A DNA stretch of 64,000 nt from Dictyostelium discoideum (lineage: Eukaryota), in the NCBI GenBank assembly GCA_000004695.1, contig CM000152.2, forward strand, positions 3,712,001 through 3,776,000, given 5' to 3'. The notes below the pieces were generated by a model, which worked only from the letters and a program-made list of their open reading frames with translations, ran no database searches and was not told where the DNA came from. The translations under genes and the position numbers were made by a program. Within the stretch, counting starts at the first letter, position 1. The number at the start of each line of letters is the position of its first letter. Below are positions 3,566 to 51,300 of the stretch, piece by piece.

Positions 3566-6000
3566 ATGGATAATGCAACTGTAGAACGAAAAACTATTAA
3601 AGCAACTAGGATAACCTTTTCACCAGGTGCAAAGGTCGGAGGTGGGGTTTATTCAATAGGGGCAAGATGGGGTCATGCTAGTATATCACAAGGTAAAAGA
3701 ATTTTAGTATTTGGTGGTCAAGGTGAATCATTATATTCAAATACTTCTGTATATGATCCAGTTACAAGTGTTTGGTCAGAAGTTAATACAGTAGATAAAG
3801 GTCCATCTGGTAGATATGGTCATACAGCAACCCTCCTAGAGGACATAAATGATCCAAATAATCAAAGAGTTATGATTTTTGGTGGTAAAAGTGGTAAAAA
3901 ATATTTAAATGATTTATTTTCTTTAAATTTAAGTGAGTATTTCAAAAAAAAAAAAAAACAAACAGAAAGAAAAAAAAAAAAAAAAAAAAAAAAATTAAAT
4001 ATTAATACTCTTTTTTTTTTTATTTTTTAAAAATAAAAGGAACAATGTCATGGAGTACATTTCATTTTGAAAAATCAACATTACCAGATTCTAGAGCTGG
4101 TCATACAAGTACATATGTACCACCAATTAATATTAATGGTTCTCTTAGAATGGTTGTATTTGGAGGAAGTCATTCAGATAAATATTTAAATAGTTGTTTT
4201 ATATTGGATTTACCAAAATCACAAGCAGGTACAATTAAGTGGATAAAACCACAAATCAAAGGTAAAGCACCATCACAACGTTCAGGTCATACTGCAGACT
4301 ATTTGAAGGATAGAAATTCAATTTTAATATTTGGTGGATTTGATGGTAGAAAATCATTCAACGATTTACATTTACTCAATATGACCGATATGAGCTGGAC
4401 AGCCGTTAAAACCAATGGTACAACACCAACCACTAGAAATGGTCACACCTCTGTTTTAGTGGGCGGTAGATATTTGGTTTTCTATGGTGGTTGTAGTGAA
4501 AGTAATGTTTCAAATGATATACAGATTTTAGATACTGATAGTTTCACTTGGTTATCACAACCAATGATAACTGGTTTAATTTTATTTCCACGTTTTAATC
4601 ATTCATCAAATTTATTAGATTCAGGTGAAATGATTGTATTTGGAGGTTGTGCTTCTGGTGTATTATATAGCGACATGTGTTCTTTAGATTTAAAATTATT
4701 TTTACCAACACCACCACCACCAACACCAACTAGAAATTTATCAATACAACAATCATCATCACCAATTTCAACTCCAACCACTACTACCACCACCACCACC
4801 ACTACGACCACATCAACAGGAGGAAATTCCGCCACACCACAATATTCAATTGAACATTTATCACAACAATCACAAACTACAACACCAACACCTTTATCAC
4901 CAATGACTGCAAGTACTTGTGGTTCTTGTCAACATCATCAACATCATAATTATCCACATAATATTAATCCGGTATCAGCATCATTGCCAACTACACCATC
5001 ATCAATTCATGTTAATAATGCATCACTTGTAAATACAAATTTATTATCAATACAATTATCAAATGCTTTGTCATTATTAAACTCTGAACAAACTCAAAAA
5101 ACCAGTTTATCCGATGAATTGATGAAAACAAAAAATGAAAGAGCGGAAGCATTTAGAAATGCAATGGAAGAACAATCAAAGATTGAAACACTAGAGAAAG
5201 AGTTGAACAAAATCGAAAATGCCTACAAGAAAGAACTCACACAAAAGAACAAAGTACAAGATTCTCTTCAAAAGATTTCCTCTACACTCAAAGAAAAGGA
5301 AACAATCATTCAATCATATCAAGAGATTATGAGTCAATTAAAATATAATTTAAAGGATTCATCATTAATGGATAAAAAAGATTCTGCCATTGTTCAACTA
5401 CTTTATCAATTTTCGTCAATAACAAATAATTGTGTTGGTAGTAGTAGTGGTGGTAGTAGCAGTAGTAATAATAGCGGCGCTGGAGGTAGTATTAATCCAA
5501 CAGAGAATATATTGTTGGTAAAAGAAACCATTGTAAATAAGTCATTAGAGATTCAATTGGAGGAATTGAAAAAGGAAAATCAAAAATTAAAAGAAAATTC
5601 AACAAATAATCAAACAAAATTATTAGAGTACGATTTAATTAAGCAAACCATTACCAATAGGATACAGATAGAAGCTGTTTCAGTTGATAATCTTTTAGGA
5701 GATAAATTGGATTCACTCGAGATGAAAGACCTTGACAAGTTGGAAGAACTCTACCATAACGTTTTAAAGAAAGTTGGTTCCGCCAAACAAGATCTACTTC
5801 AAAAACAACTATTAAAAATGCAAAGAGAAAAAGAAGAAAGTGCTGCAAATGGCAATGGTAAAACTTGTGTTGTTTGTGTTGATCTTTTAATTAATACCGT
5901 ATTAGTACCTTGTAGACATAGTTGTATATGTAGTACTTGCTCAAAGAAATTATCACTTTGTCCACTTTGCAGAACCCCAATTAAAGATGTTATTGAATAT

Positions 6001-26375: not shown

Positions 26376-26469
26376 TATAATAAAATTAAATATTAATAGT
26401 TTTATTATTTAAATAAAAAAAAAAAAAAAATCAATTATATTAAATTAAAAATTAAAAAAATTAAATAAC

Positions 26470-26500
<31 letters not shown>

Positions 26501-26666
26501 GAAAGAAAAAAAAAGAAATAAAATCATTTTAACTATTTTTTTTTTTAAATTAATTAAAAAAAAAAATTTAAAAAAAAAAAAAAAATTATTATTACATGTA
26601 ATACTAATATAATAAATAATTAAAGATTGAATTATCGATTTTTTTTTTTTTTTTTTTCAATACCCT

Positions 26667-26776
26667 CACAAGAAATCTAAACACCCACCAAAAGTTAAAT
26701 TAATATGTAAAAAAAAAAAAAAAAAAATATTTTCCCATATTAATTTTACTTTTGGTGCGTGTTTGGATTTCTTGTG
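26667..26776. repeat. Long imperfect inverted repeat (hairpin), about 40-bp arms and a 28-bp A-rich loop
   Basis: The left arm 'cacaagaaatctaaacacccaccaaaagttaaattaatatg' is the reverse complement of the right arm 'catattaattttacttttggtgcgtgtttggatttcttgtg', with two mismatches. This is direct reading. Confidence 0.8.
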
Positions 26777-26845
26777 TTTTTTTAAAAATAAAATAAAATA
26801 AAATAAAATAAAATTTAAACATTTTAATATTAATTTTTTATTCCA

Positions 26846-26877
<32 letters not shown>

Positions 26878-27180
26878 TAATAACTAAAATATATTAAATA
26901 TTACTGTTATTTGATTTAATTGCTATTAAAAATTTTTATCAAAAAAATCACCTCTTTATTAGGTTTTTAATTTTAAATATAAAAGTTTCTCTTTTTCAAG
27001 AAATGACTTGAATTTAAAAATACCATTTGGATTATTGAATTCCACTACTTAGAATTATCCATATATCGTTTCATCAATAAAGAGTGGTAAATTTCACTTT
27101 TTTTCGTTATATTTGGATAAGGTTTTATCACCACAGTTACCTAATCTTGGACATCTATGCCATAATGTTCCAATGGCCTT

Positions 27181-27362
27181 AACGAATGTATTTACTAGTT
27201 TTTCGTTTTCGTCTCTACTTCTGCCAAAATCATTAATCGATTTCACACAAATATAATGATGAATGCAATATTAATGATTTCGGCACTAGTAGAGAAGAAA
27301 ACGAAAAACTAGTCAATACATTCGGCACTAGTAGAGAAGAAAACGAAAAATTAGTCAATAAA
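27181..27362. repeat. Composite element: a roughly 55-bp inverted repeat with a 30-bp spacer, followed immediately by a 42-bp tandem duplication of the distal arm
   Basis: The reverse complement of 'aacgaatgtatttactagtttttcgttttcgtctctacttctgccaaaatcattaatcg' matches '...aatgatttcggcactagtagagaagaaaacgaaaaactagtcaatacattcgg' at about 85%. The unit 'ttcggcactagtagagaagaaaacgaaaaaYtagtcaataMa' occurs twice in tandem (27279-27320 and 27321-27362). Confidence 0.8.
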
Positions 27363-27978
27363 AAGGGTGGGTTAGTGAAAACAATCACAAAAAAAAAAAA
27401 AAAAAAAAAATTAATTTAAATATTGATTTAAAAAAAATAAAAAAAAAAATAAAAAAAAAATAAAAAAAAAAAATAAATTTTTATTGTAAATAGTTAAATG
27501 ACCATTTTTAATTTTTTTATTTATTGTATTTTGTAAATTAACAAAAAAAAAAAAAAAAAATTTTCACAAAAAATTTTAAACTTTTTTTGATCCATTTTTA
27601 CCAGCACCATTCCCCATCTCAATTTATCACAATCTTGATCCATTTTTTTTTTTTTAAAACAATAAAAATAATAATACTAATAATAATAATAGTGGTAATA
27701 ATAACAGTAGTATTGTTAATAAAAAATATTGTTAATAAAATAAAAAATAAAAAATAAAAAAAAAAAAATTAATTAATGTGAAAATATCAGGAGGGGTTTT
27801 TTTTTTTTTATTTTTTTTTTATTTTTTTTAAAAAAATTATTTCATCATTCATTAGTTATTGGTACAATATCAATGAAAAATGAAATAAATTGATAACATG
27901 ATAAGATCATATTTTTATAAAATCAATATTAATGAAAGCTATATATGTTGTAATTATAGGTACTATGCACAAAGTAAA

Positions 27979-28353
27979 ATGACAAAAAAAGGTAGTTCTA
28001 ATAGTAGTAAACAACAGCAACAGCAACAGCAAATAATAATTAACAATAATGCAAAAGTTGACGAACCAATAATAAAAATTAATGTAAATGTTCACCCAAA
28101 TTCCAAAGAATCATCAATAGTATCATTTGAAGATCAAATATTATCACTAAGAATCTCTGAACCACCAATAGATGGTAAAGCAAATATTGGAGTTATAGAA
28201 TTCCTTTCAAAAGAATTAAATATTAGAAAGAGTAATATTGAAGTTGGTAAAGGTTCAAAGTCTAGAAATAAATCTGTAGAAATTGATATTTCAAGTGAAA
28301 ATATAACAAAAGATGAATTATTTGAAAGAATTAAAAGTAAATTAAATAATTGA
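27979..28353 (+). CDS. YggU / DUF167 (UPF0235) family protein
   Basis: '...IKINVNVHPNSKESSIVSFEDQILSLRISEPPIDGKANIGVIEFLSKELNIRKSNIEVGKGSKSRNKSVEI' matches the YggU family consensus (the V.P.AK...I pattern, LKIRLTAPPVDGKAN, G..SR.K.V.I). I place the start at MTKKGSSNSS, ATG at 27979, because the track's 27898 start is a non-ATG codon. Confidence 0.65.
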   Translation: MTKKGSSNSSKQQQQQQQIIINNNAKVDEPIIKINVNVHPNSKESSIVSFEDQILSLRISEPPIDGKANIGVIEFLSKELNIRKSNIEVGKGSKSRNKSVEIDISSENITKDELFERIKSKLNN

Positions 28354-28762: not shown

Positions 28763-29352
28763 TTATTTTAATTTTAATATTTTCATTTTTAAAGAATTTT
28801 TATCTTTTGCAGAGAAATCAATAAAATCTATTAATAGATTTGATAGTTCAAAATTTAATGAATTTATTGATTTGACAACTATATCATTTAATAATTTTGA
28901 ATTAAATAATGACGATTGATTTGATTTAGTTTGAATTTTTAATAAATATTTACTGTTTTGATCGGATGATATTATGTTTTTAAATATTTGAGTGTAGCCT
29001 TTTTTAGATGCAATACAGAGACAATTATAAAGATAATTGATTGTATTATCATTTATATTTGCAATAAAATAATTGATAAATAATTCAAGGTAATAACTTG
29101 ATGATATACCATATATACAATATTCATTTGTAAAAATTGAAAAATAATCAGGATTAAATAAAACCTCTGGTAATTTATCAAAAAGATAAATAATATCATC
29201 AACTCTATCTAAATTGTAAAGACAAACTAATAACATTCTGATTGAAATTGTAAAATTGAATGATTCTGTTTTACCAATAGTTAAACATCCAACATCTTTA
29301 CTCTTTTTAGGTGATAAAAGATTTGCTGTGGTTGTTGTTGTTGTTGTTGTTT

Positions 29353-29386
<34 letters not shown>

Positions 29387-31681
29387 GGCTGTCAATGTGG
29401 TTGTGAGTTCAATTTTACTATTAATTTCTTCAAAGCTTTTATTATCAGTTTTTAAATTAATTACTTTTAACTTTGTTTCAATTGATTCTTTTGAAATATT
29501 ATTAAATAAAAACTTGATAAAAGTTAACATTTTACTTGTATATGGATTAAAACTAGATTCAAAAATTTCCAAACTCAATGGATGTTTTAATTGTGCATTT
29601 GATAAAAAGTTAATAATTGAATTTTCTTTGTTGTCTTTTATATTCGAATCAACTAGCCCTTCAGAAACAATATCAAAATAACCATCAAAACCAATTGAAT
29701 ATACTGATGGTTTTAAAATTGCTATATTTAATCGATCTAAAAAATTTTGATCAAACCAACGATAAAAATCTAATTTGCATCTTTTCCCAATACTATCCAT
29801 TAAATATTCATAATGTTCAATAAGTTCTAATTGAATTTGTTTCCAAATTTCATTTTGATCTTTAAAAAATAAACATTCATCCCTGTAATTTTGAAAATAA
29901 AAGTCTAATATTTCTTTTTTATCGATAAGATGACAATAATCGCCTATTAATTTACCAATGCTTGGATATTTAGTTATTTTTTGTGTTTGATTAAGTTGTA
30001 ATTGCTTTATTTTTTTTAAAAAATAATCTATTAACTCTATATCATTACTTGAAAATACTGCTTTAAAAAATATATAATGATCATATTCTTCAAAAGTTTT
30101 CACATATTTATTATCTAAAACATTTAATATTAATTCGAATTTTTCATTTTTTTCAATGTTTATATCTTTTAATATGCTTTGAAAAAATAATTGATGATCA
30201 AAACTTCTACCATTCCATTTATTGACAACACGCTCATACATTTTATCTACACTTTCTTTTTTAAAATTTAAATAATAGAGTAATGGTTTTCTAAAAAGCC
30301 TTTCATTTGCTGAATATACTGAGCAATAGAAAAATAAACAAATTGATTTATAAAATTTTTTAATAATATCTTTTAAATTAATATTATTACTTGCTGTAGA
30401 TGTTGTTATTGTTAAATTGGTTGTTGGGGTTAAGGTTAAGGTTAAGGTTGAGGTTGAGGTTGAGGTTGAGGTTGAGGTTGAGGTTGGAGTGGTATGATTT
30501 AATAAATTTTTAATTGTTGAATTTAATTGATCATTTGTAAATTGTGATGTTTGTATTTCATTTAATTCTAATATTTTTTGATTTAATTTTTCATAATACT
30601 TTTTATTATTAGGGTGTATTTTGATTTTTTCTTTTTGTTCTTGTTGTTCCATTCGTTCTTGTAAGTTTGTTGATTCTATTAATCTTTTATATGATTTTAT
30701 TAGTTTTTTAAATTTATTATCGAATGAAAGAAATGCTGATAAATCGGTGCTAATGAATGGCAATAATTTATGTGATGTTGGAATACTATTAATTGATTTT
30801 AAGTAATTGTAAATTTTTAATTTATCATATGTAGTATTACCAAAGACCGATGGTTTAACATGAATTTTTATAGCTTTTTTAATAACTTCTGAATCGATTT
30901 TAAAAAATTTGATAAATTGATCTAGTGCTGTAAAATTTACATTTTCAATCATTCTTTGAATCCATTTATCAATATCTTCATCGAATTGAATAGTTGAAGA
31001 TAGTTGTATTGGTAGTGAAGTTGAGGTTGATGAATATCTTGAAAATAATAAATTATAAAATGATCTTGTTTTCTCATCATTTTTTTTAAATTTATTAATA
31101 ATATTGGTAATATTGTATTTATTTCTTATTATTTGATTATTATTATTACTTTTAATATTATCTATAATTATTTCCATTGAATTACTTTTGCCATTTAAAA
31201 AGACTCCATTACAACCAATTAAATCATAATAACCATATTGTTTATTTTTAAAATTTGAAAATATGTGTTTAAATATTACTATATTTCTAAAAACTTTCCA
31301 AAAATAAATTTCAACTGGTTCAACATCTTTAAATGTTAATATATATTGTTTTTCTTGTGGTTGTGGTTGTTGTTGTTCCTCTTCTTTTTTTTCTTCTTGT
31401 TGATTGGTTTCATTATTTGTAAGATTGTTTTTTACTTTTTTTGATAAAAAATAACCTTCAATTCTATTATAGACTAATTGTTTTTTACCATTACTTGCTA
31501 AACCTAATGATTTTGCAATTATTTGTAATTCTCTGTAATTTGTTGAACCACTGTCAAAATCTTTTTTAAACTTTTTATAAGTTAATAAACCATTATCAAT
31601 GCCATCACTATCATCATCATCATTATCTTTTTCATGATGTCGATTAATATTTTCGATTTCTTTTCTTTTATTACTTATCAT
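28763..31681 (-). CDS. Paralog 1 of a tandem gene family: a 972-aa protein with an N-terminal SAP-like DNA-binding motif, Thr/Ser-Thr repeat tracts and a large uncharacterised helical C-terminal region
   Basis: A single ORF with an ATG at 31681. The N-terminal '[34 protein letters not shown]' fits the SAP motif pattern (L..L...A...GL...G.K..L..RI). The tracts (TS)n/(TL)n and T11KT8 are encoded by ACN codons. It is about 85-90% identical to the three downstream ORFs. Confidence 0.8.
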
Positions 31682-32077: not shown

Positions 32078-34888
32078 TTATTTTGATTTTAATATTTTCA
32101 TTTTTAAAGAATTTTTATCTTTTGCAGAGAAATCAATAAAATCTATTAATAGATTTGATAATTCAAAATTTGATGAATTTATTGATTTGACAACTATATC
32201 ATTTAATAATTTTGAATCAAATAATGATGATTGATTTGATTTAGTTTGAATTTTTAATAAATATTTACTGTTTTGATCGGATGATATTATGTTTTTAAAT
32301 ATTTGAGTGTAGCCTTTTTTAGATGCAATACAGAGACAATTATAAAGATAATTGATTGTATTATTATTTAGATTTTCAATAAAATAATTGATAAATAATT
32401 CAAGGTAATAACTTGACGATATACCATATATACAATATTCATTTGTAAAAATTGAAAAATAATCAGGATTAAATAAAACCTCTGGTAATTTATCAAAAAG
32501 ATAAATAATATCATCAACTCTATCTAAATTGTAAAGACAAACTAATAACATTCTGATTGAAATTGTAAAATTGAATGATTCTGTTTTACCAATAGTTAAA
32601 CATCCAACATCTTTACTCTTTTTAGGTGATAAAAGATTTGCTGTGGTTGTTGTAGTTGTGGCTGTCAATGTAGTTGTGAGTTCAATTTTACTTTTAATTT
32701 CTTCAAAGTTTTTATTATCAGTTTTTAAATTAATTACTTTTAACTTTGTTTCAATTGATTCTTTTGAAATATTATTAAATAAAAACTTGATAAAAGTTAA
32801 CATTTTGCCTTTATATGGATTAAAACTAGATTCAAAAAATTTCAAATCCAATGGATGTTTTAATTGTGCATTTGATAAAAAGTTAATAATTGAATTTTCT
32901 TTGTTATCTTTTATATTCAAATCAACTAGCCCTTCAAAAACAATATCAAAATAACCATCAAAACCAATTGAATATACCGATGGTTTTAAAATTGCTCTAT
33001 TTAATCGATCTAAAAAATTTTGATCAAACCAAGGAGTAAAATCTAATTTGCATCTTTTCCCAATACTATCCATTAAATATTCATAATGTTCAATAAGTTC
33101 TAATTGAATTTGTTTCCAAATTTCATTTTGATCATCAAATAATAAAGATTCGTCTCTGTAATTTTGAAAATAAAAGTCTAATATTTCTTTTTTATCGATA
33201 AGATTACAATAATTGCCTATTAATTTACCAATGTTAGGATATCTAGTTATTTTTTGTATTTTATTAGGTTGTTGCATTAATATTTTTAAAAAATAATCTA
33301 TTAGCTCTATATCATTACTTGAAAATACTGCTTTAAAAAATATATAATGATCATATTCTTTAAAAGTTTTCACATATTTATTATCTAAAACATTTGATAT
33401 TAATTCGAATTTTTCATTTTTTTCAATGTTTATATCTTTTAATATGCTTTGAAAAAATAATTGATGATCAAAACTTCTACCATTCCATTTATTGACAACA
33501 CGCTCATACATTTTATCTACACTTTCTTTTTTAAAATTTAAATAATAGAGTAATGGTTTTCTAAAAAACATTTCAGTTGCAGAATTGACTGTGCAATAGA
33601 AAAATAAACAAATTGATTTATAATATTTTTTAATAATTTCTTTTAAATTAATATTATTACTTGCTGTAGATGTTATTGTTAAATTGGGTGTTGAGGTTGA
33701 GGTTGAGGTTGGAGTGGTATGATTTAATAGATTTTTAATTGTTGAATTTAATTGATCATTTGTAAATTGTGATGTTTGTATTTCATTTAATTCTAAAATT
33801 ATTTGATTTAATTTTTCATAATACTTTATATTACTAGGATGTATTTTGATTTTTTCTTTTTGTTTTTGTTGTTCCATTCGTTCTTGTAAGTTTGTTGATT
33901 CTATTAATCTTTTATATGATTTTATTAGTTTTTTAAATTTATTATCGAATGAAAGAAATTTTGATAAATCGGTGCTAATGAATGGCAATAATGTATGTGA
34001 TGTTGGAAGACTATTAATTGATTTTAAGTAATTGTAAATTTTTAATTTATCATATGTAGTATTACCAAAAACCGATGGGTCAATATGAATTTTCATAACT
34101 TTTTTAATAACTTCTGAATCGATTTTAAAAAATTTAATAAATTGATCTAGTGCTGTAAAATTTACATGTCCAATCATTGCCTGAATCCATTTATCAATAT
34201 TTTCATCGAATTGAATAGTTGAAGAAGTTGATGTTGATGAATATCTTGAAAATAATAAATTATAAAATGATTTTGTTTTTTCATCATTTTTTTTAAATTT
34301 ATGAATAATATTGGCAATATTGATTTTATTTCTTATTATTTGATGATTATTATTACTTTTAATATTATCTATAATTATTTCCATTGAATTACTTGTGTCA
34401 TTTAAATAGGAACGATCACAACCTATTAAATCATAATAACCATATTGTTTATTTTTAAAATTTGAAAATATGTGTTTAAATATTACTATATTTCTAAAAA
34501 CTTTCCAAAAATAATTTTCAACTGGTTCAACATCTTTAAATGTTAATATATATTGTTTTTCTTGTGGTTGTGGTTGTTGTTGTTCCTCTTCTTTTTTTTC
34601 TTCTTGTTGATTGGTTTCATTATTTGTAAGATTGTTTTTTACTTTTTTTGATAAAAAATAACCTTCAATTCTATTATAGACTAATTGTTTTTTACCATTA
34701 CTTGCTAAACCTAATGATTTTGCAATTATTTGTAATTCTCTGTAATTTGTTGAACCACTGTCAAAATCTTTTTTAAACTTTTTATAAGTTAATAAACCAT
34801 TATCAATGCCATCACTATCATCATCATCATTGTCTTTTTCATGATGTCCATCAATAGTATCGATTTCTTTTCTTTTATTACTTATCAT
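32078..34888 (-). CDS. Paralog 2 of the same family (936 aa), SAP-like N-terminus retained
   Basis: The N-terminal 100 aa are near-identical to paralog 1. The Thr tracts are shorter ('[16 protein letters not shown]', '[12 protein letters not shown]'). The upstream flank (34890-35000) differs from that of paralog 1. Confidence 0.8.
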
Positions 34889-35629: not shown

Positions 35630-38581
35630 TTATTTTGATTTTATTATTTTCATTTTTAAAGTATTTTTATCTTTTTCTGAGAAATCAATAAAATCTATTA
35701 ATAGATTTGATAATTCAAAATTTAATGAATTTATTGATTTGACAACTATATCATTTAATAATTTTGAACTAAATAATGATGATTGATTTGATTTAGTTCG
35801 AATTTTTAATAAATATTTACTATTATGATCGGATGATATTATGTTTTTAAATATTTGAGTGTAACCTTTTTTAGAAGCAATACAAAGACAATTATAAAGA
35901 TAATTGATTGTATTATTATTTAGATTTTCAATAAAATAATTGATAAATAATTCAAGGTAATAACTTGACGATATACCATACAAACAATGTTCTTTTGTAA
36001 AAATTGAAAAATAATCAGGATTAAATAAAACTTCTGGTAATTTATCAAAAAGATAAATAATATCATCAACTCTATCTAGTCTGTAAAGACAAACTAATAA
36101 TATTCTAATTGAAACTGTAAAATTGAATGATTCTGTTTGGCCAATAATGAAAAATCCAACATCTTCACCTTTTTTAGCTGATAAAAGATTTGTTGCGGTT
36201 GCTGTTGTTCCTGTTGTGGTTGTTGTTGTGGTAGTTGTTGTGGTTGTCAATGTGGTGGTGAGTACAATTTCACTATTAATTTCTTCAAAGTTTTTATTAT
36301 CAGTTTTTAAATTAATTACTTTTAACTTTGTTTCAATAGATTCTTTTGAAATATTATTAAATAAAAACTTGATAAAAGTTAACATTTTACTTTTATATCG
36401 ATTAAAACTAGATTCTAAAATTGGAGAAACATATAATGGATGTTTTAATTGTGCATTTGATAAAAAGTGAATAATTGAATTTTCTTTGGAGTCTTCCGTA
36501 TTCGAATCAATTAGCCCTTTGAAAATAAAATTAAAATTAAAATTAATAGTGCCACGAAAATCAAAATAGTATAAGAGTGGTTTTGCAATTGTTCTATTTA
36601 ATCGATCTAAAAATTTTGAACTATCAAACCAACGGAAAATATCAAAATTGCATCTGTTTCCAATACTACCCGTTAAATATTCATAATGTTCAATAAGTCC
36701 TAATTGAATTCGTTTCCAAGTTTGATTTTGATCATTAAATAATAAACATTCATCTCTGTAATTTTGAAAATAAAAGTCTAATATTTCTTTTTTATCGATA
36801 AAATGACAATAATCGCTTATTAAACTACCAATAACTGGGAAGGTAGTTGTTTCTGGTGTTTGATTGAGTTGTTGTTGCTTTAATATTTTTAAAAAATAAT
36901 CAATTAACTCTATATCATTACTTGAAAATACTGCTTCAAAAAATATATGAAGATCTTTTAATTTAAAAGTTTTCACATATTTATTATTTAAAACATTTGA
37001 TATTAATTCGAATTTTTCATTTTTTTCAATTTTTATATCTTTAAATATTCTTTGAAAAAATAATTTATGATCAAAATTACTACCATTCCATTTTTTGATA
37101 ACATGCTCATACATTTTATCTACCCTTTCTTTTTTAAAATATAAATAATAAAGTAATGGTTTTCTAAAAATAGTTTTATTTGCTGAATTAATTGTGAAAT
37201 AAATAAATAAATAAATTGATTTATAATATTTTTTAATAATTTCTTTTAAATTAATATTATTGTTGTTATTGTTAGTGCTGCTGTAATTACTTTCTGTAGA
37301 TATTATTGTGAGATTGGTTGTTTTTAATGATGTTGAGGTAGAGGTAGAGGTTGAGGTATATGTAGATGTAGAGGTTGAGGTTGAGGTTGAGGTTGAGGTT
37401 GGAGTGGTATGATTTAATAATTTTTTAATTGTTGAATTTAATTGATAATTTGTAAATTGTGATGTTTGTATTTCATTTAATTCTAATATTTTTTGATTTA
37501 ATTTTTCATAATACTTTTTATTAGGATGTATTTTAATTATTCCTTGTTTTTCTAGTTGTTCTTGTTGTTCTTGTAAGTTTGTTGATTCTATTAATCTTTT
37601 ATAAGATTTTATAAGTTTTTTAAATTTATTATCGAATGAAAGAAGTGTTGAAAAATTGATGCTAATAGTTGATAATAATGTATGTGATGTTGGAATACTA
37701 TTAATTGATTTTAAGTAATTGTAAATTTTTAATTTATCATATGTAGTATTACCAAAGAATGATGGATCAATATGAATTTTTATAGCTTTTTTAATAACTT
37801 CTGAATCGATTTTAAAAAATTTAATAAATTGATCTAGTGCTGTGTAATTTACATTTTCAATCATTCTTTGAATCCATATATCAATATTTCCATCGAATTG
37901 AATAGTTGAAGGTAGTTGTGTTGATGGTGAAGTTGATGTAGATGAATATCTTGAAAATAATAAATTATAAAATGATCTTGTTTTTTCATCGTTTTTTTTA
38001 AATTTATTAATAATGTCTATAATATTGCTTTCATTTCTTATTATTTGATGATTATAGCTTTTTATATTATCTATAATTATTTCCATTGAATTACTTTTTC
38101 CATTTAAAAGGATTTCATCACAACCTATTAAATCATAATAACTGTATTGTTTACTTTTAAAATTTGAAAATATGTGTTTAAATATTACTATATTTCTAAA
38201 TATTTTCCAAAAATAAATTTCAACTGGTTCAACATCTTTAAATGTTAATATATATTGTTTTTCTTGTGGTTGTGGTTGTTGTTGTTCTTTTTTTTTTTCT
38301 ACTTGTCGATTGGTTTCATTATTTGTAAGATTGTTTTTTACTTTTTTTGATAAAAAATAACCTTCAATTCTATTATAGACTAATTGTTTTTTACCATTAC
38401 TTGCTAAACCTAATGATTTTGCAATTATTTGTAATTCTCTGTAATTTGTTGAACCACTTTCAAAATCTTTTTTAAACTTTTTATATGTTAATAAACCATT
38501 ATCAATGCCATCACTATCATCATTATTTTTTTCATGATGTTCATTAATAGTATCGATTTCTTTTCTTTTATTACTTATCAT
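35630..38581 (-). CDS. Paralog 3 of the same family (983 aa), SAP-like N-terminus retained
   Basis: Same architecture as paralogs 1 and 2, with the longest repeat tracts ('[24 protein letters not shown]', '[22 protein letters not shown]'), and more diverged from them in the C-terminal third. Confidence 0.8.
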
Positions 38582-39747: not shown

Positions 39748-42420
39748 TTATTTTAATTTTAATATTTTCATTTTTAAAGTATTTTGACCGTTTGCTGAGA
39801 AATCAATAAAATCTATTAATAGATTTGACAATTCAAAATTTAATGAACTTATTGATTTATCAACTATGTCATTTAATAGTTTTGAATCAAATAATGATGA
39901 TTGATTTGATTCAGTTTGAATTTTTAATAAATATTTACTGTTTTGATCGGATGATATTATGTTTTTAAATATTTGAGTGTAACCTTTTTCAGATGCAATA
40001 CAAAGACAATGATAAAGATAATTGGTTGTATCATTTAGATTTGCAATAAAATAATTGATAAATAATTCAAGGTAATAACTTGACGATATACTATATATAC
40101 AATATTCTTTTGTAAAAATTGAAGAATAATAAGATTTTAAAAAAACTTCTGGTAATTTATCAAAAAGATAAATAATATCATCAACTCTATCTAGTTTGTA
40201 AAGACAAACTAATAACGTTGTAATTGAAATTGTAAAATTGAATGATTCTGTTTTACCAATAGTTAAACATCCAACATCTTCACTTTTTTTAGGTGATAAA
40301 AGATTTGTTGCGGTTGTCAATGTAGTGGTGAATTCAATTTTACTATATTTTTCTTCAAAGTTTTTATTATCAGTTTTTAAATTAATTACTTTTAACTTTG
40401 TTTCGATTGATTCTTTTGAAATATTATTAAATAAAAACTTGATTAAAGTTAACAATTTGGCTGCATATGGACTAAAACTAGATCCTAAAATTTCCAAATC
40501 CAATGGTTGTTTAAATTGTGCATTTGATAAAAAGTTAATAATTGAATTTTCTTTGTTGTTATTTATATTCGAATCAATTAACCATTTAAAATCACTACTA
40601 CTACCACCAAAATCAATAGAATATACCAATGGTTTCATAATTGCTCTATTTAATCGATCTAAGAAATTTAAATTTTTATACCAATAAATAAAATCTAATT
40701 TGCATCTGTTTCCAATACTACCCGTTAAATATTCATAATGTTCAATAAGTTCTAATTGAATATATTTGCAATTTTCATTTTGATCATTAAATAATAAACA
40801 TTCATCTCTGTAATTTTGAAAATAAAAGTCTAATATTTCTTTTTTATCGATAAGATGACAATAATCGCATATTAATTTACCAATGCTTGGATATTTTGTT
40901 ATTTCTGGTATTTGATTAAGTTGTAATTGTTTTATTTTTTTTAAAAAATAATCTATTAACTCTATATCATTACTTGAAAATACTGCTTTAAAAAATATAT
41001 AATGATCATATTCCCTAAAAGTTTTCACATATTTATTATCTAAAACATTTAATATTAATTCGAATTTTTCATTTTTTTCAATGTTTATATCTTTTAATAT
41101 GCTTTGAAAAAATAATTTATGATCGAAACTACTGCCATTCCATTTATTGACAACACGCTCATACATTTTATCTACACTTTCTTTTTTAAATTTTAAATAA
41201 TAAAATAATCCTTTTCTAAAAACCCCTTTATTTTCAGGTTTAACTGTAAAATAAAAAAATAAATAAATTGATTCATAATATTTTTTAATAATATCTTTTA
41301 AATTAATTTTATTGTTGCTGTTGATGTTGTTGTGATTGTGATTGTTATTGTTGTTGTAGTTGCTTTCTGTAGATATTATTGTAAGATTGGTTGTGGTTGT
41401 TGTTGTGGTTGTTGTTATTGAAGTTGAGGTTGGAGTGGTATGATTTAATAAATTTTTAATTGTTGAATTTAATTGATCATTTGTAAACTGTGATGTTTGT
41501 ATTTCATTTAATTCTAATATTTTTTGATTTAATTTTTCATAATACTTTTTATTATTAGGATGTATTTTCAATTTTCCTTGTTTTTCTTGTTGTTCTTGTT
41601 GTTCTTGTAAGTTTGTTGATTCTATTAATCTTTTATATGATTTTATAAATTTTTTAAATTTATTATCGAATGAAAGAAATATTTCTAAATCGGTATTAAT
41701 GAATGGTAGTAATTTATGTGATGTTGGAAGACTATTAATTGATTTTAAGTAATTGTAAATTTTTAATTTACCATATGTAGTATAACCAAAGAATGATGGT
41801 TTAATATGAATTTCCATAACTTTTTTAATAGCTTCTGAATCGATTTTAAAAAATTTAATAAATTGATCCAGTGCTGTACAATTTACATTTTTAATCATTC
41901 TTTGAATCCATTTATCAATATTTTCATCGAATCGAATAGTTGAAGATAGTTGTATTGGTGAAGTTGATCCTGACGAATATCTTGAAAATAATAAATTATA
42001 AAATGATCTTGTTTTTTCATCATTTTTTTTAAATGTATGAATAATGTCTATAATATTGCTTTCATTTCTTATTATTTGATGATTATTATTGCTTTTAATA
42101 TTATCTATAATTATTTCCATTGAATTAGTTCTGCCATTTAAAAAAAAGATTTCATCACAACCTATTAAATCATAATAACCATATTGTTTACTTTTAAAAT
42201 TTGAAAATATGTGTTTAAATATAAATATATTTCTAAAAACTTTCCAAAAATAAATTTCAACTGGTTCAACATCTTTAAATGATAATATACATTGTTTTTT
42301 TTGTTGTTGTTGTGGTTGTTCTTCTTTTTTTTTTTCTTGTTGATTGCCATTATCATGATTATAGTCTTTTTCATGATGTTCATTAATATTATCGATTTCT
42401 TTTCTTTTATTATTTACCAT
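39748..42420 (-). CDS. Paralog 4 of the same family (about 890 aa), with the SAP-like N-terminal region missing
   Basis: The homologous Met is '[20 protein letters not shown]', ATG at 42420. The track ORF extends to 42570 only through lysine-rich read-through of the poly(A) 5' flank. Relative to paralogs 1-3, about 70 aa containing '[58 protein letters not shown]' are absent between 'HHEKD' and the 'EEQ...QQQ...[23 protein letters not shown]' segment that follows the deleted block. Confidence 0.7.
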
Positions 42421-42823
42421 TTTTAAAAGAAAAGAAATTTTAGTTTGATTTTGTTTTAAAAAAAAAGCCTTGTCGAAAGTTATTGTTTTTTTATTGTAAA
42501 CGGTGCAAATTCGAACTTTCAAAAGTTTTTTCAATTTTTTTTTTTTATTCATTTTTTTTTTTTTTTTCATTTTCTTTTTTTCCCCACCGATAATAATAAC
42601 GGATAATAACTTTTAATATATTAATTACAACCTTTATACTACAGTTTTTTTTTTTGTCTACTAAAATCATTGATGATTTTAAAACAATAGCTTTCAACTA
42701 TTGTAAAGGGTGTGACCCTCCAGTCTCGGGTGATCATGATATCGAAAAAAAAAAAAATTCATTACAATCTTTTGTGTAAACTCTCATCTTAAAGCGAACA
42801 AACAAACCACAAGTTTATAAAGT

Positions 42824-48316: not shown

Positions 48317-51300
48317 TTATTTTTTTCCACCTTTTTTCTTGACATTAGTGAAAGAGGTTGGTCTTGCACCTTTACGTTTATTAAGAGCCTTTGGATCCAA
48401 TTTGATATAAGAATATGGTTCGAATTTTTGATCTCTCTTACGATTATCACCTTTGGTTTTAGCTACAGTTTTAGTACTCTTATTGTCACGATCTTGATAA
48501 TTTACTAAATGATCAACACCTCTAACTCTGTTATAACGAAGGGTAGCAGTTTCAATACGACCTTCATTTTTATTATTATTATTAGTAGTACGAGTTGATT
48601 TAACTGATTTAGCGCCACCCATGACTGATTTAGCACCACCACCACCACCACGAACAGATTTAGCATTTGTTCTTCTTGTGAAATTTGATTTAAGATCATC
48701 ATTATAACGTGAAAGATTTTCATCGATATCATCATCTGAATAATCTGAATTATCATGATTATCTTGTTTGAATTTATTTTTGAGACCTTTTGCTTTAGTG
48801 ACATGATAACCTGCTTTTCTTTCATAGGCTTCTTCATTCTCTTCGAAAACTTGATCGAGGAAGGATTTCTTTCTCTCTCTCTTTCTCTTTTGACCTTCAT
48901 CTTCAGAATCTGATGATTCAATAATCATACGACCATCTTCATCAAGTTGGAATGGATTTTGAAGTTTACCACCATTCTTTGCGGCTTTAGCAAACATTTG
49001 TTTTGCAACGATATCAGCGGCTGCTTTTGCTGACAAATGACTAAATGCATTTCTATCCAAGAAATCAATTGGATCTTCACCCTCTTTGATGAGGAAATTA
49101 TCTTTAGTATCTTTTTTAGTTTTCTTTGGTTTAACATTGAAAAGGAATTCCTCAATATCAGCATCATCTTCACTATGATCCCTATCACTATGCTCTTCAT
49201 CTGATGCTAACATTTGTTCATCATCATCATCACCACCACCACCAGAAGTATTCTTTGATTTTTTATTCTTTTTACTTTTTTGTGATTTACTATCATCACC
49301 ATTTTCATCCATATTTTCATTTGAATCAACACCACCGCCATTTCTAGATAATTCTTTAGCTTTTTCTTTCTTTTCATTCTTTTTACGAATGTTTGTAACT
49401 ACTTTTTTGAAATCTTCAGGTACTAATTGATAAATTTGATCGAAACCAAATCTTTTAATTAAACGTTCTAAAAGGATTTGAACGATAGTTCTAAAGTAAT
49501 TCTTATCGATACCACCCCATTTTGCTAAACCATTGACGAGTACTTCCAATTGAGATTCGATTGATTTTGTGTCTTTAAAAGTTGCAATTACAACACGAAC
49601 TAAACCAAACACTGCTTTTACAATCTCTCTATGTGGTGATGCTAATAACACAAGTACAGTTGTAACCAATTGACCGACAAACTCTTCATTGATATCACGA
49701 TAGAATTCATGAATGACTCTAGCGATTGAAACAATTGATGCTGATACCATATGTGGAGTAATCGATGCTAAACCTGCCATCATCAATTGTAAATATTCAT
49801 GAATTGCTTCGTTATGAGCGATGGTGATTGTATCCTCCATTGATACACCTTTCTTTGGTTTCACTAATTTTGCAGAGATTAAACACATAACTTTACCAAT
49901 TTCAATGATTAATTCATTTGCAATCTCTCTACATTTAACATTAGTTTCTTTTGTACATAAAATAATCTCTGGAATTAATGACGGTATAAATTTAGTTTTT
50001 AATTGTACCCAACCAATATTAACTTTAACTTTTGGTTTATTATCTGTACTTGTAGTTGTAGTAGTAGTTGTTGTTGTAGTAGTTGTAGTAGTTGTAGTAG
50101 TATTTTCTAATTGTTTTTCATTTTCATTAATAGCAACTAATTCTAATTCTTCTTCAGTTAATAAATGTTTATTATATGAAGATTTAGTTAAGGAGATAAT
50201 AATTTCTCTTAAACATTTTAAACGAGTTTTCTTAATTGTTGATGGTGATTGCATTAAATTACTAACTAATAATGCTTTAATCTTTGTTAAATTTTGAAGA
50301 ATAAAACTTTCATGATATTCACAAATCTTTACTAAAATCTTATAAGATCTCTTTTGTAAACCTGGATCAGAACATTTCAATTGTGGTTTAATAATTTTAT
50401 ATAAAACTTTAATATTCTCTTCATCTAAATGTTTAACGAAACCAATTGTTAAATCTGTTAAATAATATTTCTTTGTTTTTTCTTTTGGTGTGGTGGTTGT
50501 AGTAGTTGTAGTTGTAGTATCCATTGAATTTTGAGTTGGTTTCTTTTCAATACCTTCTAAAGTTAATGCTTCAACTAATTTTGTAATTAATGAATTAAAA
50601 ATTGTATTTAAATTTATAGAATCAGTGATTGAAACCAATGCTTCAATTGCATTTAAAATGTAATAACGTTGATCTTGATTTGAAGTTGGGAAAATATTGA
50701 AAAGAATTGGTAAATAGTTTTTAGAGAATACTGAAACCGATTTCAATAACTGAGTAGCTCTTTCTTGAGTGACTAAATGATGTTGTTTTCTTAATGGTAT
50801 GTAAACTGGTGGTTTAGTGATTTGAGTATCCTTTAATTTATTGATCATTTGTGTTAATGCTGCACAAATTACAATACGTAATCCTGGTTCATCGGATAAA
50901 GCAACACCCAAATTACGAGCAATCACTCTAAATGAAACGTCTGAATCCAATGGATGATTTAAAAAGCCTGGTAATAAATCCCAAACTTGTGAATATAATA
51001 TCTCCAAATTCTTTGCTTCAACTAATCTACCATCCATTTCAACTTGTTTACCTCTTTCTTTCATTGCAATTGCCATTGGATAAAAATATTCAATGAAAAA
51101 TGATAATTGGGTATATTTAATATTATCTCTCATTAAAGGTAATAACCAATTTCTATTAATTTTAATTTTGCTTTATAATTTAAAAAAAAATAATAATAAA
51201 TTAATATAAATTATTATTATAAATTAATTAAAAATTATTTTTAATATTATTAATAACCTACTCATTTGGATGAGATTCTAAATTTAATGGTAAAATTTTT

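Follow-up and report, generated by a model that had tools for sequence, protein, structure and literature searches.

A Dictyostelium inverted repeat with a tandemly copied arm corresponds to the precursor hairpin of the published microRNA ddi-mir-7097

An inverted repeat with a tandem copy of one arm, lying in an intergenic region of Dictyostelium discoideum chromosome 3, corresponds to the precursor hairpin of the published D. discoideum microRNA ddi-mir-7097, and is thus an already known feature. It is encoded on the minus strand of the window, by which we mean the whole 64-kb stretch of DNA that was analysed. We put at roughly nine in ten the probability that the locus is the ddi-mir-7097 gene, whose capped and polyadenylated transcript is processed by DrnB and RbdB, and that the extra arm copy (copy B) is a recent local duplicate in the 5' leader that is predicted not to compete with the hairpin. 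Sequence, strand and coordinates are identical to those reported for ddi-mir-7097 (Meier et al., 2016, PMC4894637; Liao et al., 2018, PMC6161686; Edelbroek et al., 2024, PMC11014262). The original prediction, made from the letters alone, had described the structure but had not recognised the hairpin as the precursor of an expressed, Dicer-dependent microRNA. What is added here is modest: the position of copy B and its predicted inertness, and the presence or absence of the hairpin between close lineages. The locus opens no new question. It does show that a published microRNA gene can be recovered from raw sequence alone in an extremely AT-rich genome (the GC content of the window is 22.7%), and it offers a convenient case for studying the birth of amoebozoan microRNAs and the amount of 5' flank that the DrnB/RbdB microprocessor tolerates.

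A repeat search placed the two arms at 27183-27237 and 27270-27324, each 55 nt long, with a complementarity of 91% and a spacer of 32 nt. The predicted inverted repeat of about 55 bp therefore stands, while its complementarity and spacer, first given as about 85% and 30 bp, are revised. Tandem Repeats Finder reported a 42-nt unit present 2.0 times from 27279 to 27360/62 (score 157). The extra 42-bp tandem copy of the distal arm, also part of the original prediction, is confirmed: copy A (27279-27320) and copy B (27321-27362) are identical at 40 of 42 positions by direct count. A 30-mer singled out earlier occurs exactly twice in the 64-kb window, against an expectation of 0.

When the segment 27170-27375 is folded as RNA, the plus strand reaches -72.9 kcal/mol (z = -10.1) and the minus strand -77.2 kcal/mol (z = -11.0). 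None of 200 dinucleotide shuffles attains this stability; the hairpin fold is far beyond chance. Five positions of the stem are not Watson-Crick pairs, and one of them forms a G.U wobble in the minus-strand RNA only, which fits the slightly better fold of that strand. The repeat structure is the same base for base in an independent chromosome-level assembly (GCA_054883475.1), with which the window shares 99.7% identity across 20.9 kb, so neither the hairpin nor the tandem copy is an assembly artefact. Across 26380-27900 the sole difference between the two assemblies is a 7-nt length change in a poly-A tract at 26475-26481. The gene calls of that assembly leave the repeat region intergenic, between a 312-aa gene that ends at about 26382 and a DUF167 gene at 27898-28353.

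A full-text literature search with core strings of the repeat matched them to the mature ddi-mir-7097 sequences of Meier et al. (2016, PMC4894637). In that study ddi-mir-7097-5p is UCUCUACUAGUGCCGAAAUCA and ddi-mir-7097-3p is UUUGGCAGAAGUAGAGACGAA; both have exact matches on the minus strand of the window, 5p at 27295..27275 and 3p at 27228..27208, and Table S4 of the same study places them on the minus strand of chr3 at 3739275..3739295 (5p) and 3739208..3739228 (3p). In Edelbroek et al. (2024, PMC11014262), ddi-mir-7097 counts among the bona fide miRNAs of intergenic location and is assigned to the minus strand of NC_007089.4 at 3739201..3739306 (window 27201-27306). Their dominant reads, UUCUCUACUAGUGCCGAAAUC for 5p and UUUUGGCAGAAGUAGAGACGA for 3p, fall on the minus strand at 27296..27276 and 27229..27209. 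A single offset (chr3 = window + 3,712,000) fits every published set of mir-7097 coordinates, whether from Meier, Edelbroek or Liao. Exact matches, coordinates and reads together place mature miR-7097-5p at 27275..27296 and mature miR-7097-3p at 27208..27229, both on the minus strand. From the repeat search and the folds, the 5' arm of the pre-miRNA, which holds copy A, spans 27270..27324, the terminal loop region of 32 nt, with a small internal stem, 27238..27269, and the 3' arm 27183..27237. The original description of ddi-mir-7097 reportedly goes back to Avesson and colleagues in 2012. From this original authorship we infer that mir-7097 is among the 17 miRNAs that are down in drnB- cells.

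The canonical criteria for a microRNA gene are those of Kozomara and Griffiths-Jones (2014), as applied by Liao et al. (2018). They ask that both arms yield small RNAs, that the duplex carry 3' overhangs of 0-4 nt (ideally 2) and that at least 60% of its bases be paired. Placing the dominant 5p and 3p reads on the computed fold gives a duplex in which each 3' end overhangs by 2 nt, a hallmark of RNase III cleavage, and 18 of the 21 bases of 5p are paired. This 21-nt duplex sits beside the loop of the 55-bp stem. The hairpin alone folds on the minus strand at -74.0 kcal/mol over 156 nt, or -0.47 per nt (z = -11 against shuffles), a fold energy in keeping with a canonical microRNA gene. For the 106-nt locus Edelbroek et al. 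(2024, PMC11014262) give -61.87 kcal/mol, or -0.58 per nt, and a pre-miRNA size of 88 nt. In the same study the processing precision is 91.2% overall (97.8% for the 5p arm and 90.1% for the 3p arm), stringent miRNA criteria are passed and the miRNA family is given as None.

The absence of a match to any Rfam family agrees with this last entry. Nothing in the whole window reached the gathering thresholds of Rfam 15, and the best sub-threshold match at E<=10, to MIR837, scored 50.4 bits where the gathering threshold is 117. We therefore rejected membership of an Rfam family: the matches at E<=10 are generic plant and animal miRNA-hairpin models and lie far under threshold. The sub-threshold covariance-model matches compared with the locus (MIR837 at 50 bits, MIR6426 and MIR2619) are all plant MIR precursors, and the likeness is one of hairpin shape only.

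Published genetic data bear on the processing pathway. Reads of mir-7097 are about 5-fold down in rbdB- cells (5p from 66 to 12) and the microRNA is about 40-fold up in agnA- cells, with both strands visible on Northern blots. Every previously identified miRNA was reported to be strongly reduced in drnB- cells, and AgnB probably binds miRNAs.

The primary transcript is also documented. From poly(A) RNA-seq, Liao et al. (2018, PMC6161686) predicted pri-mir-7097 at chr3 3738909-3739400 on the minus strand (window 26909-27400), and their Table S3 places a T-rich motif ending in G at DDB0232430:3739388-3739414 (window 27388-27414). RT-PCR and 5'RACE, with TAP decapping and oligo-dT priming, confirmed a start downstream of this motif (Liao et al., 2018, PMC6161686). 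By these coordinates and the primers, the promoter/start motif TTAATT(T)nG occupies 27388..27414 on the minus strand, and its final G, at 27388, is the transcription start. The three published primers fall where their descriptions place them: F1217, said to lie immediately downstream of the motif, covers 27388..27366 on the minus strand and begins at the start-site G; F1218 lies upstream of the motif at 27506..27483; and R1221 falls in the 3' arm of the hairpin. The unit defined by Liao et al. (2018) has a T-rich stretch of at most about 26 nt that ends in G at the start, on the same strand as the hairpin and upstream of it. At mir-7097 the start G lies 92 nt upstream of the 5' end of 5p (27296). 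Between the start and the hairpin, the minus-strand transcript has a leader of 26 nt including the start G (27363..27388), whose unique part, 27363..27387, precedes copy B (27321..27362). Beyond the hairpin, the 3' body of the pri-miRNA runs for about 270 nt (26909..27182) to the poly(A) RNA-seq end given in Table S3 of Liao et al. (2018), and its GC content of 25-33% is above that of the surrounding intergenic DNA.

Published work thus gives the following course. RNA polymerase II starts at G 27388 after the T-rich motif, and the primary transcript, about 480 nt long (from 27388 to about 26909), is capped and polyadenylated. The nuclear microprocessor, composed of the Dicer-like DrnB and the dsRNA-binding RbdB, then yields the 21-nt small RNAs. 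By analogy, one strand may be loaded into an Argonaute, probably AgnB, and repress complementary mRNAs. This last step is an assumption, since no target or phenotype is known for mir-7097 and drnB- cells have been reported to develop normally. Two other intergenic D. discoideum microRNAs, mir-1176 and mir-1177, share with mir-7097 the T-rich motif ending in G and a capped, polyadenylated primary transcript, and they are likewise DrnB- and RbdB-dependent and up in agnA- cells. mir-1177 is conserved across group 4 dictyostelids whereas mir-7097 is not, and the latter is the younger gene.

Copy B was delimited by the repeat search, Tandem Repeats Finder and alignment. It sits between the start site and the hairpin, within the 5' leader, and is therefore carried by every primary transcript. 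Its last four nucleotides (27321-27324) form the base of the hairpin stem, and it holds a pseudo-5p, UCUCUACUAGUGCCGAAUGUA, at 27337..27317. Small RNAs specific to copy B would have 3' ends ...GCCGAAUGU(A) or ...GUGCCGAAUGU(A), a sequence unique to this copy. The accessible parts of the published texts on mir-7097 make no mention of the tandem copy.

Such a copy might in principle act as a regulatory competitor: an alternative fold, in which it takes up the 3' arm, would block DrnB processing and so serve as a structural switch. Over 40 nt, copy B and the 3' arm are 85% complementary, and copy B is transcribed first, so that a co-transcriptional or protein-aided capture is conceivable. The folds of the full 480-nt transcript nevertheless argue strongly for the canonical hairpin: its pairs form with a mean probability of 0.89, copy B pairs with the 3' arm at an equilibrium probability of about 1e-15 to 5e-15, and a block of the proximal arm worsens the best structure by about 36 kcal/mol. 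Kinetics also favour the canonical hairpin because the 3' arm emerges after the proximal arm. At both positions where the copies differ, copy A has the pairing base and copy B the change, which would break pairing (identity to the reverse complement of the 3' arm is 37/42 for copy A and 35/42 for copy B). Both substitutions thus weaken the pairing of copy B with the 3' arm, and the mature miRNA is, from published data, abundant. We rejected the copy B hairpin as an equilibrium structure since it is thermodynamically negligible, and consider a switch highly unlikely. Instead, equilibrium thermodynamics predicts that copy B is no competitor of the canonical hairpin and can drift freely, and from the two differences we infer that it has drifted without structural constraint. 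The arms of the hairpin have diverged by 9% and the tandem copies by 5%, which suggests that the inverted duplication came first and the tandem duplication later. Most likely, copy B arose neutrally, as a by-product of the very local duplication activity to which the hairpin itself would be due.

To place the hairpin in time we compared four related loci, anchored on the DUF167 gene DDB_G0280783: those of a second isolate labelled D. discoideum (L002), D. cf. discoideum (L003), D. dimigraforme (L004) and D. purpureum (L005). In flanking coding DNA, L002 is 96-97% identical to the window and thus 3-4% diverged. Against the syntenic loci of all four, the 55-nt arm scored no better than its own shuffles, whereas the AX4-like assembly gave a perfect 110. 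Homology between L002 and AX4 ends at about 27174, 9 nt before the repeat. Judging from these alignments, the whole hairpin is absent at the syntenic locus of a lineage only 3-4% diverged. Its absence in relatives agrees with the published finding that mir-1177 is the only conserved one.

Within the body of the pri-miRNA, the block 27092-27170 is 88.6% identical in the hairpin-less L002, which is above the identity of the neighbouring AT-rich DNA; it carries a 3-nt indel, across which a minus-strand frame (…TLWHRCPRLGNCGDKTLSKYNEKK*) stays open. The block was not found at the loci of L003-L005 and has no protein homologue. The GC-richer block of L002 (L002 5590-5690) gave no Rfam match and no significant fold. 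Further along, a segment of about 450 bp (26559-27004) is inverted relative to L002 4919-5303, with 74.6% identity on the opposite strand. It spans the 3' end of pri-mir-7097 and the neighbouring hairpin at 26667-26776, and indicates that the intergenic region has been rearranged between lineages that are 3-4% apart in coding DNA.

Presence in AX4-like genomes and absence at the syntenic site of a close lineage resembles an insertion, and the original prediction had offered the terminal repeats of a small mobile element as one possible origin. The hairpin would then be the terminal inverted repeats of a small non-autonomous DNA transposon (a MITE or foldback element), one end of which was duplicated. 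Long inverted repeats beside a tandem copy would fit this, as would the fact that some D. discoideum miRNAs derive from the repetitive element thug-S; the thug-S-derived miRNA_can_D3 and the MITE-derived miRNAs of plants have an inverted-repeat hairpin, as does mir-7097. Unlike those transposon-derived miRNAs, however, mir-7097 has a single published locus, lacks a target-site duplication and lies outside annotated repeats. The suggested check for target-site duplications at the repeat boundaries found none: there is no direct repeat of at least 4 bp within +/-4 nt of any boundary, only a trivial TAA. Since the right-hand flank does not align with L002, that comparison does not define the boundary on this side. 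No further copy exists in the 64-kb window, and published tables give one locus for mir-7097 and several for the thug-S miRNA. Moreover, the start-site analysis of Liao et al. (2018, PMC6161686) left out thug-S loci and kept mir-7097. With no target-site duplication, no second copy in the window and a single locus in the published tables, a mobile-element origin is unsupported; we rejected it and consider it very improbable. The other origin proposed for the tandem copy, replication slippage, fares better, in that a local duplication by slippage or template switching is reasonable. Measured against what had been named as speaking against the original prediction, the motif is unique (in the window and in published tables), lacks direct repeats at its flanks and shows no conservation, yet it is expressed.

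The open frame in the pri-miRNA body raises a further alternative, namely that the proximal arm belongs to a protein-coding exon (a 50-codon frame at 27246..27094, minus strand) and that the hairpin arose by inverted duplication of a gene, as in the model for plants in which miRNAs are born from their target genes. Young plant MIR genes are reportedly born by inverted duplication, in work by Allen and colleagues in 2004, with MIR161 and MIR163 as examples. Like mir-7097, young plant MIR genes have a long, near-perfect and lineage-specific foldback. The frame is open for 50 codons with an exon-like GC content, and the 88.6% conservation of 27092-27170 in L002, with an indel of 3 nt, is what a coding exon might show. 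Yet it has no ATG, no gene is called at the locus in the annotations examined, and searches found neither a Pfam match nor a homologue among 5.8 billion proteins, even at E<=10; on these last two grounds the protein-coding reading of the frame was rejected. That both arms translate alike is explained by their being inverted copies. The plant model also leads one to expect a parent gene, and no parent or target gene resembling the arms of mir-7097 was found by Pfam, among the 5.8 billion proteins or in the DNA of the 64-kb window. We regard a coding origin as extremely unlikely.

A local origin of the hairpin remains the preferred reading, and the locus may bear the footprints of a very recent microRNA birth. 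In this tentative scenario, which we hold with limited confidence, a local inverted duplication within an older, GC-richer transcribed block, common to AX4 and the lineage 3-4% diverged, would have produced the hairpin, a later tandem duplication copy B, and the same process the neighbouring hairpin at 26667-26776, which may be a proto-miRNA and a sibling of mir-7097. Were this the case, the intergenic region of 1.5 kb would illustrate in nature how local template switching generates hairpins in Amoebozoa, and variant 5p-like small RNAs could stem from copy B.

A young origin also raises the question of function. The hairpin could be processed by DrnB and yet be functionless, a transient young hairpin (proto-miRNA or hairpin-siRNA) in which both duplications are neutral accidents. 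This concerns function only; the identity of the locus as ddi-mir-7097 is undisputed. That the syntenic site lacks the hairpin both in a lineage diverged by 3-4% and in three further species is consistent with such a reading, as are the lack of any miRNA family for mir-7097, the lack of a developmental phenotype upon loss of all miRNAs, and the second unexplained lineage-specific hairpin 400 bp away. So is the very long and nearly perfect stem, which at 55 bp exceeds what one duplex needs and resembles a young hairpin-siRNA locus. Against it stand the precise processing (91%) into a dominant duplex and a promoter motif of its own that is common to other miRNA genes. Both tandem-copy differences, moreover, leave the pairing copy intact, a weak sign of constraint. 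On balance we consider lack of function possible but doubtful, and retain the reading of the locus as the ddi-mir-7097 gene with an inert copy B in its leader.

Several features of the surrounding sequence deserve mention. The hairpin at 26667-26776 folds at -50 to -51 kcal/mol, with z = -12.7 for the plus strand and z = -10.4 for the minus strand, and its loop contains an A19/U19 tract. The 3' end of pri-mir-7097 stops about 130 nt short of this hairpin, which is outside the transcript. L002 has only one arm of the hairpin (L002 ~5148-5203), which points to a lineage-specific local inverted duplication, and it is possibly a proto-miRNA. The accessible full texts gave no match to its sequence, and the accessible parts of the supplementary files of Edelbroek et al. 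(2024, PMC11014262) contain no such locus.

On the other side, in the stretch that separates the DUF167 gene from the mir-7097 promoter, the 13-nt sequence TTGATCCATTTTT forms an exact direct repeat at 27587-27599 and 27635-27647, 48 nt apart; on the minus strand it reads AAAAATGGATCAA and looks like a start-codon context. Farther away, 28763-51133 on the minus strand holds five tandem paralogous ORFs of about 940-990 aa (28763-31681, 32078-34888, 35630-38581, 39748-42570 and 48317-51133), with a mutual DNA identity of 84-94%; the sole family match of this array is a weak one to SAP_new25, below threshold. Finally, the DUF167/UPF0235 frame on the plus strand (27898-28353) has 151 codons from its first ATG. 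The deposited AX4 protein DDB_G0280783 has 124 aa and its orthologues 110-122 aa, which suggests that the real start is probably a downstream ATG near 27979.
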